In this document: in pieces, positions 1,660 to 33,743 of the stretch | Numbering within the stretch: the stretch's first letter is position 1 | Layout: every line of letters starts with the position of its first letter | Source of the DNA: Candidatus Omnitrophota bacterium | GTDB lineage: Bacteria > Omnitrophota > Gorgyraeia > Zapsychrales > JBAZNR01 | Assembly: GCA_041649175.1 (NCBI GenBank) | Contig: JBAZNR010000001.1 | Span: forward strand, 719,497-783,496 | Direction of reading: 5' to 3' | DNA length: 64,000 nucleotides | Program-made: the position numbers and the translations under genes | Notes under the pieces: model-generated | Database searches by the model: none | Told to the model about the DNA's origin: nothing | Seen by the model: the letters and a program-made list of their open reading frames with translations, nothing else

Positions 1660-2162
1660 AAAATTGGATTGATCATAAATATGATTTATCGGTGATTATG
1701 CCGGATTCGATTTGGCAGAAGATGGCACGCTTATGTGAAGAATCTTATCCAAATGAATGCGGTGGGATATTGATTGGTGAGTATTCCGATGATTTGAAGA
1801 AGGCTAAGGTTAAAGATATCATGATCTCAAAGGGTAATTCTGGGAAAAGAATGAGTTTCTTGAGAGAGGCGAAAGAGGCGAATAGTTTTTTGAAGAAACT
1901 GTGGCGTATAGCATCAGGCACTAAGTATTTTATCGGTGAATGGCATTCACACCCTAATGGTGCCGGATATCCTAGCATTACTGATGATGCCGCTATGTTT
2001 CAGGTTGCAAAAAGAGATCAATGCGCTTGTAAGCGACCTGTGTTGATAATATTAAACGGTGGGCCTAAAGTTTGGAAATCGGAAAAATGTTGGGTATATC
2101 TTATGGAAGATGAAAGGATTGAATTAATTGCGATTACAGAAGGCATTTCAGGAATAGTTTGA
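1656..2162 (+). CDS. JAB/JAMM (MPN+) metallopeptidase, Cap3-like
   Basis: Perfect JAMM motif EWHSHPNGAGYPSITD (H-x-H-x7-S-x2-D) with an upstream Glu (NECGG). The start overlaps the preceding stop (ATGA), indicating translational coupling. Confidence 0.8.
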   Translation: MKNWIDHKYDLSVIMPDSIWQKMARLCEESYPNECGGILIGEYSDDLKKAKVKDIMISKGNSGKRMSFLREAKEANSFLKKLWRIASGTKYFIGEWHSHPNGAGYPSITDDAAMFQVAKRDQCACKRPVLIILNGGPKVWKSEKCWVYLMEDERIELIAITEGISGIV

Positions 2163-2178
2163 TTATGAGATCCGAGAT

Positions 2179-2607
2179 ATGGTTCTCGACACAATCATGG
2201 ATAATCCGCATGGTTCGGGAAGTTCGGAAATAAAACGAAATTTTTTGCTTATGATCCACGAAGTATTCAAGCCAAAACAATTATTCCGCGGCGGGCCAGA
2301 AAGTGCAATGCTCAAAGGCCTAACCGCTCTAGATGTCTTGAAATATGAGCAAGAGGAATTAGGCAATAAAGATGTTGTACCTGAACCCGGGATTGATTTG
2401 ACAAAGATAAAATCTGAAAATTTGGCATGGTTAACCGAGACGGAAGATCAGGCTAGAGAATATGGGGAGGCTTCTAAATCGGATTTAAAAGATTATCGGG
2501 TTATCGCTCGTGATTCTGAGGGCGGAGTATTGGTTGAGAAATTGAATGCGGAGAATAAGCCCGTTATTCTCCGCAAGATGAAAGCGGGTAGGGTAAGGTT
2601 TTCATAA
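2179..2607 (+). CDS. hypothetical 142-aa protein, co-operonic with E2-E1/JAB (16-nt gap); C-terminus ...VILRKMKAG-RVRFS
   Basis: ORF with ATG at 2179, no recognisable domain. Its last 60 nt contain a copy of the operator palindrome. Confidence 0.5.
   Translation: MVLDTIMDNPHGSGSSEIKRNFLLMIHEVFKPKQLFRGGPESAMLKGLTALDVLKYEQEELGNKDVVPEPGIDLTKIKSENLAWLTETEDQAREYGEASKSDLKDYRVIARDSEGGVLVEKLNAENKPVILRKMKAGRVRFS
2546..2576. promoter_or_regulatory. palindromic operator O1 (ATGCGGAGAATA-N7-TATTCTCCGCAA), inside 3' end of the 142-aa ORF
   Basis: 12-nt arms that are reverse complements (11/12) with a 7-nt spacer. Same architecture as O2/O3 upstream of fic. Confidence 0.5.
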
Positions 2608-2660
2608 ATAGATTTAAGTCTTAGTGAATAAACAACTTGTATAAAATAATCTGGTTAGTC

Positions 2661-2691
2661 TTGTCACAAAAATGCACGCTTTTTGTGACAA
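2661..2691. promoter_or_regulatory. 12-bp perfect inverted repeat TTGTCACAAAAA-N7-TTTTTGTGACAA (hairpin or distinct operator)
   Basis: Arms are exact reverse complements. Not followed by a U-run, so not a classic terminator. Confidence 0.4.
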
Positions 2692-2719
2692 TATCATCTG
2701 GAAATTTATAAATTGAGAC

Positions 2720-2748
2720 TTGTGTATGCGGAGAATATGTGTTATATT
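2720..2748 (+). promoter_or_regulatory. putative sigma70 promoter of fic (TTGTGT-17-TATATT)
   Basis: -35-like TTGTGT 2720-2725, 17-nt spacer, -10-like TATATT 2743-2748, about 60 nt upstream of the ATG at 2809. Overlapped by operator repeats. Confidence 0.4.
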
Positions 2749-2791
2749 CTACGCATAGTATGCGGAGATTAAGGCGTCTATTCTCCGCATA
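2725..2791. promoter_or_regulatory. two tandem 13-7-13 palindromic operators O2 (2725-2757) and O3 (2759-2791), core TATGCGGAGAATA / TATTCTCCGCATA
   Basis: Four copies of a 13-mer in alternating orientation, each pair separated by exactly 7 nt. They overlap the spacer, the -10 and the 5' UTR of fic. Confidence 0.6.
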
Positions 2792-2808
2792 GCATAAAGG
2801 AAAATTAA

Positions 2809-3954
2809 ATGAAATATATCCACCAATTAGATAACTGGCCAGCTTTCATATGGGATCATAAAGAGATTGCATCCATACTAGGGACTGTGCGCAATCGACA
2901 GGGACGTTTGATCGGCCGTATGGAAGCATTGGGTTTTTCTTTGCGTTCAGAGGCAATTTTACAGACACTTACTCTTGATGTTTTAAAAAGCAGTGAAATC
3001 GAAGGGGAGATCCTTGATCCTGCCAAAGTGCGATCATCCATTGCGCGAAGATTGGGCATGGATATTGGCGGACTTGTGCCTTCCGATCGTCATGTGGATG
3101 GTGTGGTGGAAATGATGCTCGATGCCACACAGAATTTTGATAAGCCCCTTACTCAAGATCGAATGTTTGGCTGGCATGCCAGTTTGTTCCCGACCGGACG
3201 TAGCGGAATGCATAAAATTACTGTTGGCGCTTGGCGCGACGATAGCCATGGCCCCATGAGAGTTGTATCCGGTCCTGTTGGCCGTGAGAAGGTGCATTAT
3301 GAAGCGCCGGAAGCCAGTCGTCTCAAAAGTGAAATGAAGGATTTTTTGAGCTGGTTTAATGGTTCGGCTTCGCTCACCACAGGTGGAACGAAGGATTTAG
3401 ATCCTGTGCTCAAAGCAGGTATTGCACATTTGTGGTTCGTGACGCTTCATCCCTTTGATGATGGCAATGGGCGTATCGCCCGGGCGATTGCTGATATGCA
3501 GCTGGCGCGTGCCGACGGTAGTCGGGAACGTTTTTACAGCATGTCGAATCAGATTCGTCATGAAAGAAATGAATATTATGATGTCCTTGAAAAGACACAG
3601 AAAAGTATCCATATCACAAAAGAGGGGATTGATATCACGGCGTGGCTGGTGTGGTTTCTGAACTGTTTGAGTCGGGCGCTGGATACAACTGAAAGTACAT
3701 TGTCCGGTGTGTTCAAGAAAGCCCGTTTTTGGGATTCTCTTCCTGTCGAATCCATTAACGAACGGCAGAAAATGATCATCAACAAGTTGTTTGACGGCTT
3801 TGAAGGTAAACTCACCACTTCAAAATGGGCGAAGATCACAAAGTGTTCGCAGGACACCGCTCATCGGGACATTCTTGATCTTGTTGAGAGAGGTATTCTC
3901 GTTAAGGATCCCGCTGGTGGACGCAGTACGAGCTATTCGTTGAAAGAGGCGTGA
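2809..3954 (+). CDS. Fic/DOC family protein (AMPylase-type) with N-terminal inhibitory-helix motif and C-terminal winged-helix domain
   Basis: Fic motif HPFDDGNGRIARA. N-terminal SSEIEG fits the (S/T)xxxE(G/N) inhibitory motif. About 80 C-terminal residues are typical of the wHTH found in this Fic subfamily. Confidence 0.85.
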   Translation: MKYIHQLDNWPAFIWDHKEIASILGTVRNRQGRLIGRMEALGFSLRSEAILQTLTLDVLKSSEIEGEILDPAKVRSSIARRLGMDIGGLVPSDRHVDGVVEMMLDATQNFDKPLTQDRMFGWHASLFPTGRSGMHKITVGAWRDDSHGPMRVVSGPVGREKVHYEAPEASRLKSEMKDFLSWFNGSASLTTGGTKDLDPVLKAGIAHLWFVTLHPFDDGNGRIARAIADMQLARADGSRERFYSMSNQIRHERNEYYDVLEKTQKSIHITKEGIDITAWLVWFLNCLSRALDTTESTLSGVFKKARFWDSLPVESINERQKMIINKLFDGFEGKLTTSKWAKITKCSQDTAHRDILDLVERGILVKDPAGGRSTSYSLKEA

Positions 3955-4110
3955 TCAATTCAGGATTGGCCCGTGCTAACACTGTGCTAACAAAATAGCC
4001 CGCACCTAGGGCAATCAGGCAGAAACACCATCAAGGCACAAATCGCGCAACTGATAACACCCCTAACAGTTATCAAAAACCAGCAAAAACCAGCAACAGC
4101 GTCGGAGCCT

Positions 4111-4155
4111 CTCATAACCTGAAGGTCTCGGGTTCAAATCCCGACCCCGCAACCA
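4111..4155 (+). other. 3' fragment of initiator tRNA-Met (anticodon loop CUCAUAA, AGGUC variable loop, T-arm, CCCCGCA-A-CCA); not a complete tRNA; putative att-site direct repeat
   Basis: T-arm TCGGG-TTCAAAT-CCCGA, acceptor 3' strand CCCCGCA with discriminator A and CCA, anticodon CAT. No complementary 5' acceptor strand or anticodon-stem 5' strand lies upstream, and homology breaks exactly at 4110/4111. Confidence 0.6.
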
Positions 4156-4167
4156 GTTTTCCTCATC

Positions 4168-4206
4168 AAAAAAACCTTTGCCTTCGGGCAAGGGTTTTTT
4201 GGTTTT
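4168..4206 (+). terminator. intrinsic (bidirectional) terminator: CCTTTGCC-TTCG-GGCAAGGG flanked by A7 and T6
   Basis: 8-bp GC-rich stem with a UUCG tetraloop, followed by TTTTTTGGTTTT. It sits immediately after the tRNA 3' end copy. Confidence 0.6.
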
Positions 4207-4224
4207 AAGAGGAAACTGGTTGCG

Positions 4225-4251
4225 CCCCTGTCCTTGGAAAAGGACAAGGGG
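4225..4251 (+). other. second stem-loop (10 bp with 1-nt bulge)
   Basis: CCCCTGTCCT...AGGACAAGGGG. No adjacent U-run, so function unclear. Confidence 0.3.
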
Positions 4252-4302
4252 CAAGGTACATTATCCCTCACCGCTTTTTTGATTTTATGTTAAAATAAAA
4301 AA

Positions 4303-4746
4303 ATGAAAATGGATCACTTCATAGAAGAAGCAATAAAAGAAGCGCAGATCGGTTTATCCGAAGGTGGTATTCCGATCGGAGCTGTGCTTGTCCATCAGGA
4401 TAAGATCATTGGGCGGGGCCATAATCGCCGGATACAAAAAAATAGCGCTATTCTTCATGGCGAAACAGATGCCCTTGAGAATGCGGGCCGTCAGAAAGCA
4501 AGTATTTATCGAGACTGCGTTATGTACACAACTCTTTCTCCGTGCATTATGTGTTCGGGGACAATTCTTCTGTACGGTATCCGTCAAGTTGTTGTTGGGG
4601 AAAATAGGAATTTCCTTGGGGCTGAAGACTTATTGAGGCAAAACGGAGTTATGGTTGATGTTTTGCAAAATGATAGATGTATTAAGATGATGGAATCGTT
4701 CATCAAAGAAAAGCCGATGCTTTGGAATGAAGATATCGGTAAATAA
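4303..4746 (+). CDS. cytosine deaminase, yeast FCY1-type (CMP/dCMP deaminase zinc-binding fold)
   Basis: HGE...LENAGR and TLSPCIMCSGTILLYGI...VVGENRNF closely match the Fcy1 active-site regions (HxE, PCxxC). Confidence 0.8.
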   Translation: MKMDHFIEEAIKEAQIGLSEGGIPIGAVLVHQDKIIGRGHNRRIQKNSAILHGETDALENAGRQKASIYRDCVMYTTLSPCIMCSGTILLYGIRQVVVGENRNFLGAEDLLRQNGVMVDVLQNDRCIKMMESFIKEKPMLWNEDIGK

Positions 4747-31367: not shown

Positions 31368-33743
31368 TTATTCTTTCTTAGCCCTAAAGATCAACAATAT
31401 TACCAGCAGAAAAGACAAGATGCTCACGATGCAACCGATGTAAAAAGAAGGCGGTTCAAAAGAGAATCTCACCGTATGTTTTCCGGCGGGCGCAAAAACC
31501 GAACGGATAAGATAATTGGTCGCATAAAGTTTGGAGGGTTTGTTATCCACAAAAACCTTCCAATCCGGGTGAAAGGCATCGCTTAAGACAACTAGCCCGG
31601 CGTTTTCTAAATCCGCTTCAATAATAACTTCATTAGCTGTGTATCGGGTAATTTCCGCTTTTGAGTTGTCGCGCACCGGAATTTGAGAGAGTTGTTTCTC
31701 CATCTCGCGGTCAGAAGCCCCTTCCAAAACCACAGCCTCATTTAAATTCTGGCTGATAAACTTTATCGCGTTAAAAGGGACATCGCTGGTATTATCAAAA
31801 ATAGCGCGGTGGACAATAAAGGCCCGCGGAAAAGCCTTCGTGCGCTCATAGATCACTACTTCCTTGGAATAAGCAGCTTTGGTCGTGTCGGCCAACGTTG
31901 CCTTTAAGTACATTGGTTTTGTATACGATCCGCTGAGCAATATTTCCGGAGATCCGCCTCTGTTTATAGGAGCAACAATATATTTAAGGTTAAGCATATC
32001 TAAAAGCGGATTATCGTCGGGAAGAGAAACCGTGCGCAAAGCCGGCGGACGCAGGTCTTGCCTAAAATGATTTCTTATCACGAGTTGATTGAAGAAATTA
32101 ACGAACCGGTTAGGCAGAAAATCTTGAAAGATCCCAAAATCATCAACGCCATAGCCGGTGGCCGTGTTCGGATAAAATTGCCAGAATACCCCGTAGGCTC
32201 TTTGCGGTTGTGGAGTATCTTTTAAGAATTCAATGTAGGGAATTTTGGCAAACGATTGAAAACGCTTGGGATGTTCTCGGTGAATATAGAGAAATAATTC
32301 GAAAATGAGCAAAAAGACGATTGCTAGAATAGCATGCTGTTTTTTTAAGATATTTTTATCTTTCAGAAAAAGGATCAGCCCAAAGAAGATAAGAACGCAG
32401 AAAGCAAAAATACTCGCATGAAGCGATTGCGCGAGATGCCCGGAATCTCTAAAGTAAAGTAAATAACCGGAAATAATGGCTACGAAAGTTGCGCTAAACA
32501 CTAAATTTTTCTTAAAAAGATGGCCGGCACAAAGGATCGTCCGTAATCCCATCCCGGCGGCAATAGCCGTGCACAGCGCGACAACGTGAGGTGTATGGAT
32601 CGCAAAACGGCAAATATCAAAGATCGGTAAGTATCCTATCCAGTTAATTAAAGGAAAACTGTAAGATTTTGCAACGGCTATAAAAGCTATTGCGGCAAAG
32701 AAATAATTTAATCCGCATCGTTGTTTGTTGAACAAGCTTAAAACAACCAATGCCAGGGGAATAATGCCTAAATATCCTCCCCACCATCCGGCGAACGTAA
32801 AATCGTAGGTTAAATTTTCTTTCTGAAAAAAATGCGGAACAGCCAAGGTGATGATGCGATGAATAACTTCTCCGGAAGATAATCCCACATTTTGGGGATG
32901 CGCGTGCCAAAATTCGGAATTAAGATTACGCAAAAATGGAAAAAGGACAATAGCAGATAAAGCAAATCCCAAAATGTAAGAAAGGCTAAGCTGTCCGGCA
33001 GCGGTCTTAAAGTTTGGTTTTGGCTTGATGGTGAGTGTGCGGAAAATAAAAAATAAAAATCCCAACCCGTTTACAAAAAAGATATGCTCGGCATGTCCGC
33101 CAAAAAATGTCAATGCGGTGGCTATGGCGACAAGCCCGATGGCTCGCGCTGTTTTTTCACGAATGAGTTTTTCTAAAGACAAAAGAAGTAGTGGCGCGAT
33201 GATTTCAACATTGGCGATCCAATACTGCAAAAGGGTCATGGGGCCGGTGAACATAAAAATGATCGCCGCGCCCAAAGAAGGTATTCTGGGAAATCGTAAA
33301 ACCCGCATGAACCAATATAAAAATAATCCGCCGAATAAAAATCTTGCCAGCATCAAAATGTCCCAGGAATATAATTCCGGCAGAAGATAAAGGATGAGAT
33401 GAAGCGGGAAAAACATCCCCACCTGGATCATCCCGATCAAAGGATAGCCGCAGGCCTGATGAGGATTCCATAGAGGAATAATGCCTTGTTGAAAATTATT
33501 CTTGATGAATTGATAGATAGGTTCTTCCAAAACGGACGCGTCAGTTCCGTTGACGGGAATATAAGCGGGGCGGTTATGTTCTTGCCCGTAAACACCATAA
33601 TGAAAAGCCTGGGCGTTGGCGGTTGCGACCTTAAAGGTGCGTCCTAAAAAGACAATGTCATAGAAAAATACGGCGATTAGAGCCGATAAGATCCCGATGA
33701 TCAAAAGGTTTTCTTTGAGGAAATTCTTTTTAGGGTTTTTCAT
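31368..33743 (-). CDS. YfhO-family polytopic membrane protein (putative glycosyltransferase)
   Basis: 791 aa, many TM helices plus a C-terminal extracytoplasmic domain and final TM. YfhO-like architecture. Confidence 0.6.
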   Translation of the reverse strand: MKNPKKNFLKENLLIIGILSALIAVFFYDIVFLGRTFKVATANAQAFHYGVYGQEHNRPAYIPVNGTDASVLEEPIYQFIKNNFQQGIIPLWNPHQACGYPLIGMIQVGMFFPLHLILYLLPELYSWDILMLARFLFGGLFLYWFMRVLRFPRIPSLGAAIIFMFTGPMTLLQYWIANVEIIAPLLLLSLEKLIREKTARAIGLVAIATALTFFGGHAEHIFFVNGLGFLFFIFRTLTIKPKPNFKTAAGQLSLSYILGFALSAIVLFPFLRNLNSEFWHAHPQNVGLSSGEVIHRIITLAVPHFFQKENLTYDFTFAGWWGGYLGIIPLALVVLSLFNKQRCGLNYFFAAIAFIAVAKSYSFPLINWIGYLPIFDICRFAIHTPHVVALCTAIAAGMGLRTILCAGHLFKKNLVFSATFVAIISGYLLYFRDSGHLAQSLHASIFAFCVLIFFGLILFLKDKNILKKQHAILAIVFLLIFELFLYIHREHPKRFQSFAKIPYIEFLKDTPQPQRAYGVFWQFYPNTATGYGVDDFGIFQDFLPNRFVNFFNQLVIRNHFRQDLRPPALRTVSLPDDNPLLDMLNLKYIVAPINRGGSPEILLSGSYTKPMYLKATLADTTKAAYSKEVVIYERTKAFPRAFIVHRAIFDNTSDVPFNAIKFISQNLNEAVVLEGASDREMEKQLSQIPVRDNSKAEITRYTANEVIIEADLENAGLVVLSDAFHPDWKVFVDNKPSKLYATNYLIRSVFAPAGKHTVRFSFEPPSFYIGCIVSILSFLLVILLIFRAKKE

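Follow-up and report, generated by a model that had tools for sequence, protein, structure and literature searches.

Fic enzymes whose C-terminal domain is a winged helix-turn-helix (wHTH) are widespread, with about 1,800 InterPro entries according to a 2026 preprint. They include the anti-phage protein SoFic, CccR, which is a type VI secretion system (T6SS) toxin and regulator, and the pathogen effector CbFic2, and an operator has been defined for CccR only. Here, we analyze a member of this group, encoded by the fic gene (2809 to 3954, plus strand) of a Candidatus Omnitrophota bacterium, together with three palindromes, O1 to O3, that lie around its promoter. The gene sits in a stretch of 64,000 nucleotides (GenBank assembly GCA_041649175.1, contig JBAZNR010000001.1, positions 719,497 to 783,496), which we call the window and to which all coordinates refer. 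We put the probability at roughly 80% that the palindromes are Fic's own operators, forming the array of a self-contained, negatively autoregulated fic gene. Autoregulated Fic-wHTH enzymes have precedents in CccR, a repressor of the promoter that drives it, and in SoFic, which binds the promoter of its gene; the window locus probably joins them.

CccR of Yersinia pseudotuberculosis is a class II Fic protein with its helix-turn-helix (HTH) at the C terminus, and a T6SS effector (PMC9755527). It footprints AGATAATCAT-N26-ATGATAATCT over its own −35 and −10 elements and acts as a repressor, on the evidence of footprinting, electrophoretic mobility shift assays, isothermal titration calorimetry, and a reporter; the protein dimerizes via helix alpha1, and the dimer has its DNA-binding helices 70 Å apart (PMC9755527). 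Like the window Fic, CccR combines an AMP-transferase, an N-terminal inhibitory helix (alpha-inh), and a C-terminal HTH with an inverted repeat over its own promoter. The two differ in that CccR has a single, widely spaced operator pair, whereas the window has tandem 11-N7-11 palindromes with 18/16-bp phasing, which are predicted operators. CccR is only distantly related and is absent from the PDB sequence matches of the window Fic. We also compared its half-site, AGATAATCAT, with the TGCGGnGAwTA half-site described below; the two share only a short AGATTA-like stretch, which we judged not meaningful.

SoFic of Shewanella (SO_4266) is a single-gene anti-phage system, and the protein, as a dimer, binds the 100 bp immediately upstream of the gene that encodes it (bioRxiv 10.64898/2026.07.09.737422). 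It has the same domain organization as the window Fic but is itself only weakly similar to it (E 3.5e-6 over about 100 residues), and its operator sequence is undefined, unlike the motif here. EcSofic has a downstream antitoxin of 47 residues, AS1, described in a study that did not address DNA binding (PMC12249575). Work on CbFic2 of Coxiella burnetii (CBU_0822) has treated it as a host-targeting effector with histone H3 as its AMPylation target; its wHTH is the part that binds DNA, and DNA brings about dimerization and a shift toward deAMPylation (PMC10628234). CbFic2 was studied with random DNA only, and its authors call for the specific binding sequence (PMC10628234). A family-wide operator model, a candidate specificity code, and a specific CbFic2 site all appear to be missing from the literature we searched, where a full-text search for the motif strings returned only primer and short hairpin RNA coincidences.

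The window Fic has 381 residues and belongs to the class II Fic enzymes. Its DUF4172-Fic-wHTH architecture emerges from Pfam matches (DUF4172, 4.7e-33; Fic, 3.3e-15), from a full-length alignment to its best PDB match, 8cil (C. burnetii CbFic2, E 6e-95), and from a modeled C-terminal winged helix. CbFic2, which has the same architecture, is the closest solved relative. The Fic active-site motif HxFx(D/E)GNGRxxR is present as H214PFDDGNGRIAR225, and its columns are invariant in 16 homologues. N-terminal to it lies the class II inhibitory motif (alpha-inh), S61-S-E-I-E65-G66, which is also invariant in homologues and aligns with the SAIEGE region of CbFic2 that holds the inhibitory E66. An identical Fic protein is recorded in a Candidatus Omnitrophota metagenome-assembled genome. 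The wHTH is encoded at 3760 to 3942 (plus strand; residues 318 to 378), as delimited by the structure model and by conservation. This part was modeled at a predicted local distance difference test score (pLDDT) of 78 to 91 as three helices and a beta-hairpin: H1 at 318 to 328, H2 at 337 to 344, a recognition helix at 348 to 360, and a wing hairpin at 364 to 378 with a GGRST loop. Conservation and covariation mark out the recognition helix S347-Q348-D349-T350-A351-H352-R353-D354..., encoded at 3847 to 3888 (plus strand).

The three palindromes announced by the original prediction are present, and their coordinates had been given correctly to within 1 nt; none of them is assigned a strand. O1 (2547 to 2575) consists of TGCGGAGAATA at 2547 to 2557, the spacer AGCCCGT, and TATTCTCCGCA at 2565 to 2575; its arms match perfectly across 12 nt, and it lies 262 bp 5′ of the fic start and 180 bp 5′ of O2. 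Read as 13-mers, the arms of O2 are TATGCGGAGAATA (2725 to 2737) and TATTCTACGCATA (2745 to 2757), separated by TGTGTTA, and those of O3 are TATGCGGAGATTA (2759 to 2771) and TATTCTCCGCATA (2779 to 2791), separated by AGGCGTC, with one mismatch in each palindrome. In terms of 11-nt arms, O2 is TGCGGAGAATA-N7-TATTCTACGCA (2727 to 2755) and is embedded in the promoter, and O3 is TGCGGAGATTA-N7-TATTCTCCGCA (2761 to 2789) and lies on the predicted 5′ untranslated region (UTR). The right arm of O2 and the left arm of O3 together form a tail-to-tail 11-N5-11 pair.

We looked for the 13-mer across all 64 kb of the window, allowing at most two mismatches and using 100 dinucleotide shuffles as a control. 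Eight matches were found against a shuffle mean of 2.04, and none of the 100 shuffles reached eight. Six of the eight are the half-sites of O1 to O3, spanning 2547 to 2789, so the 13-mer is not a dispersed repeat within the 64 kb. The other two, at 33036 and 49689, have two mismatches each and look like chance. The idea that the 13-mer might be a member of a dispersed family, such as repetitive extragenic palindromes (REP) or miniature inverted-repeat transposable elements (MITE), thus finds no support in further copies within the window. The 13-mer core itself fared less well than the palindromes it was meant to describe, because the conserved core proved to be only 11 nt, TGCGGnGAwTA, in the 337 half-sites collected below; the flanking TA within the 13-mer is local to this locus.

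The operators overlap the promoter in a way that would allow repression. The candidate −35 hexamer, TTGTGT (2720 to 2725, plus strand), and the −10 hexamer, TATATT (2743 to 2748), are 17 nt apart, just where the promoter had been predicted, with O2 between and over both hexamers. With the TG at 2740 to 2741, the candidate extended −10 reads TGtTATATT (2740 to 2748, plus strand); the O2 spacer contributes its last bases to this element, and the O2 right arm its first 4 nt. The left arm of O2 lies in the −35/−10 spacer, and the right arm lies over the −10 element and the expected transcription start. O3 was likewise expected over the fic leader, and its placement at 2761 to 2789 agrees with the predicted 5′ UTR. 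A ribosome-binding site, AAGGA (2797 to 2801, plus strand), lies 7 nt 5′ of the ATG. A consensus promoter scan of the window did not list TTGTGT-17-TATATT, because its −35 hexamer agrees with the consensus at only three of six positions. The scan offered a weak alternative, GTGACA-18-TAAATT (2685 to 2714), which we set aside; TTGTGT-17-TATATT was retained because TTGnnn-17-TATATT is conserved in relatives, being common to L001, L205, L208, and L209 (numbers with L identify loci).

To place the array in a wider context, we used a protein-based scan with one genome per species, which yielded 583 Fic relatives. The best 80 of these, 58 to 79% identical, were kept and, with the window, make up a set of 81 loci selected by protein similarity. 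They come from at least ten phyla, including Omnitrophota, Bacteroidota, Acidobacteriota, Planctomycetota, Verrucomicrobiota, Elusimicrobiota, Gemmatimonadota, and others, as well as Alpha-, Beta-, Gamma-, and Deltaproteobacteria. Nearly every locus has palindromes of a sequence family shared with O1 to O3 within 110 bp 5′ of the fic start. Counted with the relaxed pattern TGCGNNGAWTA and up to one mismatch, half-sites reach a density of 11.0/kb in the 400 bp upstream of fic against 0.31/kb in the rest of the loci. The same half-sites therefore stand upstream of fic orthologues in dozens of unrelated genomes, which bears out the assignment of the operators to the fic promoter.

The logo of the 337 half-sites reads T-G-C-G-G-n-G-A-W-T-A and has zero information beyond these 11 positions. 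Their spacing is equally regular: head-to-head (+/−) pairs lie 18 bp apart, start to start, in 93 cases, and tail-to-tail (−/+) pairs lie 16 bp apart in 76 cases. The commonest architecture among L001 to L080 pairs two triplets (+−+ +−+) at a distance of about 54 bp, the gap between them varying from 19 to 22 bp. In the window, as in its nearest relatives, four half-sites follow one another without interruption (+−+−). As in the CccR system, an inverted repeat lies over the gene's own −35 and −10 elements: O2 has this position, and the arrangement with the left arm in the −35/−10 spacer and the right arm over the −10 is kept in relatives, in canonical loci, and in Coxiella. Within the Omnitrophota clade, the −10 is made up of the last two spacer bases and the first four bases of the right arm. 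At canonical loci, the best sigma-70 scores average 8.06 out of 12 for the proximal palindrome, with at least 8 in 43 of 63, and 4.0 for the distal palindrome. In most loci, part of the operator array lies upstream of the −35.

No other gene travels with fic. When open reading frames (ORFs) of at least 80 residues were clustered across the 81 loci, Fic was the sole conserved family, which leaves no antitoxin-like or regulator-like partner. Unlike EcSofic with its AS1, the family has no conserved small ORF beside fic other than Fic itself (25 to 110 residues, 146 loci). Relatives with 88 to 92% identity have wholly different neighbors (aminotransferase, PNKP-ligase, AbiEii, glycosyltransferase). 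Nucleotide homology with close relatives extends from 2719-2726, at the −35 box, to 3947-3949, just before the fic stop. These limits define the conserved unit as promoter, operators, and ORF.

Judged by its sequence, then, the window Fic is a class II, self-inhibited enzyme that fits the SoFic defense model rather than half of a two-gene toxin-antitoxin pair. The PADLOC SoFic model matches it at 2.1e-41, and, in keeping with a defense role of the SoFic kind, it lies near Cap2 and Cap3 genes of the type found in cyclic oligonucleotide-based anti-phage signaling systems (CBASS). It does resemble type II toxin-antitoxin systems in pairing a potentially toxic enzyme with tight negative feedback through palindromic operators over its own promoter. 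Those systems have a separate antitoxin gene, whereas the window Fic itself carries both the inhibitory helix and the DNA-binding domain. The promoter had been described as toxin-type, and this description holds for the operators on the gene's own promoter but not for a toxin-antitoxin pair, as Fic is self-inhibited and lacks a conserved partner gene.

One indication of which protein reads the operators comes from the recognition helix. Across all loci with a TGCGG operator, the helix residues S347-x-D349-T350-A351-x-R353-D354-I355 and the wing residues G370-G-R-S-T-x-Y376 are 94 to 100% conserved, and this holds even in proteins that are 47 to 56% identical overall. Residue 348, the first of the recognition helix, is variable and tracks operator positions 5 and 6. 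Q at this residue goes with GA, as in the window; N, S, or G goes with GT, H with TA or TC, and K with AC, and in the Coxiellaceae, where R at 348 is joined by T or A at 349, the core turns into AAGC. The mutual information between residue 348 and positions 5 and 6 is 0.87 bit, compared with a mean of 0.33 and a maximum of 0.58 in permutations, none of which (0 of 10,000) reached the observed value. Residue 352, one helical turn further, ranks second in its covariation with the same positions. The equally variable control residues 344, 360, 365, and 367 showed no covariation excess, which speaks against a purely phylogenetic signal. The signal at 348 also holds in the protein-selected loci alone, for position 6 alone, and when each 80% or 70% cluster is represented by a single sequence (0 of 5,000 permutations in each case).

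Individual loci with altered helices also have altered sites: L041, with D349P, carries TGAAGAGATTA and TGATTGGAATA, and L027, with the helix K-D-S-A-I, carries TGCAACGAATA. We propose residue 348 as the candidate determinant of operator positions 5 and 6 and D349 as the candidate determinant of positions 3 and 4. The covariation is correlational, yet direct read-out by the wHTH of Fic itself predicts just such a pattern. Together with the lack of any other conserved gene, it supports the C-terminal winged helix of Fic as the candidate binder, as the original prediction had suggested.

The CbFic2 clade provides a natural variant of the same construction. CbFic2's own promoter has a homologous array, and in the C. 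burnetii locus (L081, 2447 to 2475) AGAAGCGATTA-N6-TAATCGCTTCA lies at −54/−37, over a TATAAT box. Its Coxiellaceae relatives have arrays of three and four half-sites of TGAAGCGATTA with 17/16-bp phasing (L083, 2458 to 2501; L084, 2412 to 2472). Throughout the clade, an altered helix, S-R-T/A-T-A-Y-R-E, occurs together with the altered operator TGAAGCGATTA, and the operator is built around a perfect TATAAT in the same way as at the window promoter. Compared directly, the recognition helix is S-R-T-T-A-Y-R-E in CbFic2 and S-Q-D-T-A-H-R-D in the window Fic, and the half-site is TGAAGCGATTA with a spacer of 6 in the former and TGCGGAGAATA with a spacer of 7 in the latter. The predicted specific site of CbFic2 is TGAAGCGATTA-N6-TAATCGCTTCA over its TATAAT box.

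The association between motif and gene was also approached from the DNA side. Metagenome contigs were scanned for TGCGGNGAWTA-N7-TAWTCNCCGCA, blind to genes, and gave at least 131 matches in at least 120 stretches. Among the 131 palindromes listed, 86 have a fic start 11 to 84 bp downstream, another three stand before divergent fic genes, and nine are too near a contig end to judge.

O1 stands apart from the rest of the array. It had been placed inside an upstream ORF, and it does lie within the last 62 nt of the 142-residue ORF at 2179 to 2607; the homology of that ORF, though, stops at nt 2544. A core of residues from about 25 to 122 is shared at 80 to 97% identity by 21 database proteins, whose N- and C-termini vary and most of which are on short contigs. 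The homology ends at residue 122 (nt 2544), and the last 20 codons comprise O1 and the sequence beyond. Since this end coincides with the edge of O1, the ORF tail reads through into the fic module and is not conserved coding sequence. On these alignments, O1 forms the left boundary of the fic-associated sequence and is not an operator within a conserved coding sequence. The ORF has no Pfam or PADLOC match; it could be a small CBASS-associated gene that the fic module has cut short, or else ORFs have been called on a conserved DNA element. A counterpart of O1 exists in L205, whose Fic is 88% identical: a perfect intergenic palindrome at −263/−245. O1 and O2 are 180 bp apart in the window, and their counterparts in L205 are 179 bp apart, although the DNA between them is only about half identical. 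In the other loci, no distal palindrome was found, and distal single half-sites occur at background frequency.

Between O1 and O2, at 2661 to 2691, we also observed a second perfect palindrome, TTGTCACAAAAA-N7-TTTTTGTGACAA, of unrelated sequence. The region is partly kept in L205 (CAAAA...TTTTT..GACAA.ATCATCT). It may be the site of another regulator or part of an upstream promoter, GTGACA-18-TAAATT.

Binding by Fic, repression, dimer stoichiometry, and looping are all steps that we infer, and we propose that they fit together as follows. Fic would dimerize via its N-terminal helix, and each of its two C-terminal winged-helix domains would read one 11-bp half-site, TGCGGnGAwTA. The half-sites would be engaged head-to-head across the 7-bp spacer, with centers 18 bp (about 61 Å) apart; by arithmetic alone, this is close to the 70 Å between the helices of CccR. 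As the half-sites of O2 lie in the −35/−10 spacer and over the −10 and start, a bound dimer should shut out RNA polymerase, so repression is the sign of regulation to be expected. O3 on the 5′ UTR and the tail-to-tail junction of O2 and O3 (11-N5-11) would add cooperative occupancy. O1 would be a lineage-specific auxiliary site that may raise the local repressor concentration or permit looping, and looping via O1 is possible over 180 bp, or about 17 helical turns.

Several observations weigh against autoregulation by Fic. The full-length Fic model is poor (mean pLDDT 60.9), and for that reason only its wHTH part was used. In straight B-DNA, two half-site centers 18 bp apart are rotated by about 100 degrees relative to each other, which would require the DNA or the protein to adapt. 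The triplets of half-sites are an odd number that is not fully explained by one dimer per palindrome. O1 is kept in one relative only, L205. Kinship was handled in the covariation test only by cluster thinning and control residues. Finally, about 30 of the 131 listed metagenome palindromes have no nearby fic, which means that fic promoters are not strictly the only place where the site occurs. The neighbors of these orphan palindromes include OEP, helicase IV, AbiEi-like, radical SAM, integrase, TerB, RelA/SpoT, and PhyH genes, and no recurrent neighbor that would point to a second target family was found among the matches listed. Some orphans are full arrays of four to seven half-sites (L186, 9798 to 9860; L200, 1286 to 1348; L198, 3203 to 3260). 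Others have C-terminal remnants of fic beside them (L189, L135) or follow closely on a fic stop (L106, L137); they may be what is left where fic was lost, or additional targets.

The orphans are also the natural starting point for other explanations. Palindromes beside unrelated genes could fit the broader regulon of a different, unlinked host transcription factor, whose operators the sites would then be. We regard this as very unlikely, as the motif accompanies fic through more than ten phyla and unlike neighborhoods, and a factor of the same specificity would be needed in all of them; furthermore, the operator variants follow the recognition helix of Fic, and the orphans share no recurrent neighbor. 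Even less probable is that the palindromes are chiefly recombination or mobility sites, such as REP/MITE-like elements or the ends of a fic cassette, with the promoter overlap secondary. Such a role would suit a gene whose context differs in every genome, an O1 placed exactly where the homology of the upstream gene stops, and orphans that sit by fic remnants or just after a fic stop. A cassette end should also be found on the far side of the gene, but the sites are on one side of fic only, with no half-site enrichment 3′ of the fic stop in the loci. The module has no recombinase, nucleotide homology begins at the −35 box and not at the end of a repeat, the repeat is not dispersed within the 64-kb window, and the covariation with the wHTH is what an operator predicts.

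The explanation to which we give the least credence is that the palindromes act as RNA hairpins in the fic leader, affecting stability, translation, or termination, or as DNA cruciforms. O3 and part of O2 would indeed be transcribed, each could form a 12- to 13-bp stem with a 7-nt loop, and a terminator scan lists O1 on the minus strand. However, pairing is not what has been preserved. In the 93 head-to-head palindromes, 175 of 1023 arm positions are non-Watson-Crick, and in 116 of these 175 even wobble pairing fails. At position 9, each arm has A or T without exception, yet the two arms are complementary there in just 46 of 93. Thus, base identity is conserved and pairing is not. The tail-to-tail half-sites at a fixed 16 bp, the odd numbers of half-sites, and the sites upstream of the −35 are likewise at odds with a hairpin, and Rfam has no match over 2500 to 2810.

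The surroundings of the locus have the character of a defense island. At the left edge of the window, an ORF at 34 to 1659 encodes a CBASS-type E1-E2 protein, Cap2-like (PADLOC 6.8e-43; Pfam ThiF), and one at 1656 to 2162 encodes a CBASS-type JAB protein, Cap3-like (PADLOC 6.4e-40). These two genes give fic its defense-island setting, and on gene content the window seems to begin within a type II CBASS-like operon. On the other side of fic, the sequence at about 4100 to 4156 resembles the 3′ part of a tRNA, showing an anticodon-like loop (CTCATAA), a T-arm (TCGGGTTCAAATCCCGA), an acceptor strand, and CCA. A search of the window with ARAGORN yielded no tRNA, and Rfam likewise made no call at this place; the fragment may be an att-site remnant at the edge of an integrated island. 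An Rfam search over 2000 to 4400 with E up to 1 returned nothing on the palindromes and sub-threshold SurA and Moco hits near 4150 to 4260. Just past the tRNA-like fragment, at 4303 to 4746, lies a gene for a 147-residue protein of the cytidine/deoxycytidylate deaminase family (dCMP_cyt_deam_1, 2.5e-24; MafB19-deam, 4e-21), which looks like an ordinary housekeeping gene.

The operators described here bear on the Fic-wHTH family as a whole. For the CbFic2-like subfamily, they amount to a putative operator model in which TGCGGnGAwTA half-sites are arranged as 11-N7-11 and 11-N5-11 and embedded in the promoter, and the motif is a reliable annotation marker for this fic module and its remnants. 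The specific CbFic2 site is a key next step for the authors who studied that protein, because DNA binding switches it between AMPylation and deAMPylation. The operator model, the CbFic2 site, and the 348/D349 determinants are directly testable with short oligonucleotides and point mutants.

A more far-reaching possibility, which we hold to be speculative and rather unlikely, is that the array goes beyond a brake on transcription and is the physiological allosteric DNA ligand of a SoFic-type defense enzyme. Gene and operators would then make up a minimal, self-regulating cassette traveling among phyla, in which residue 348 and operator positions 5 and 6 co-evolve to form a private code of recognition. 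By analogy with CbFic2, which goes from an AMPylating monomer to a deAMPylating dimer on binding DNA, the enzyme would sit at its own promoter as an operator-bound dimer that does no harm, and an infection or stress that disturbs the DNA or titrates the protein would release it as an active AMPylator. If so, the orphan palindromes, about a quarter of the listed metagenomic instances, would be extra docking or regulon sites, and one event would both de-repress fic and arm the enzyme.

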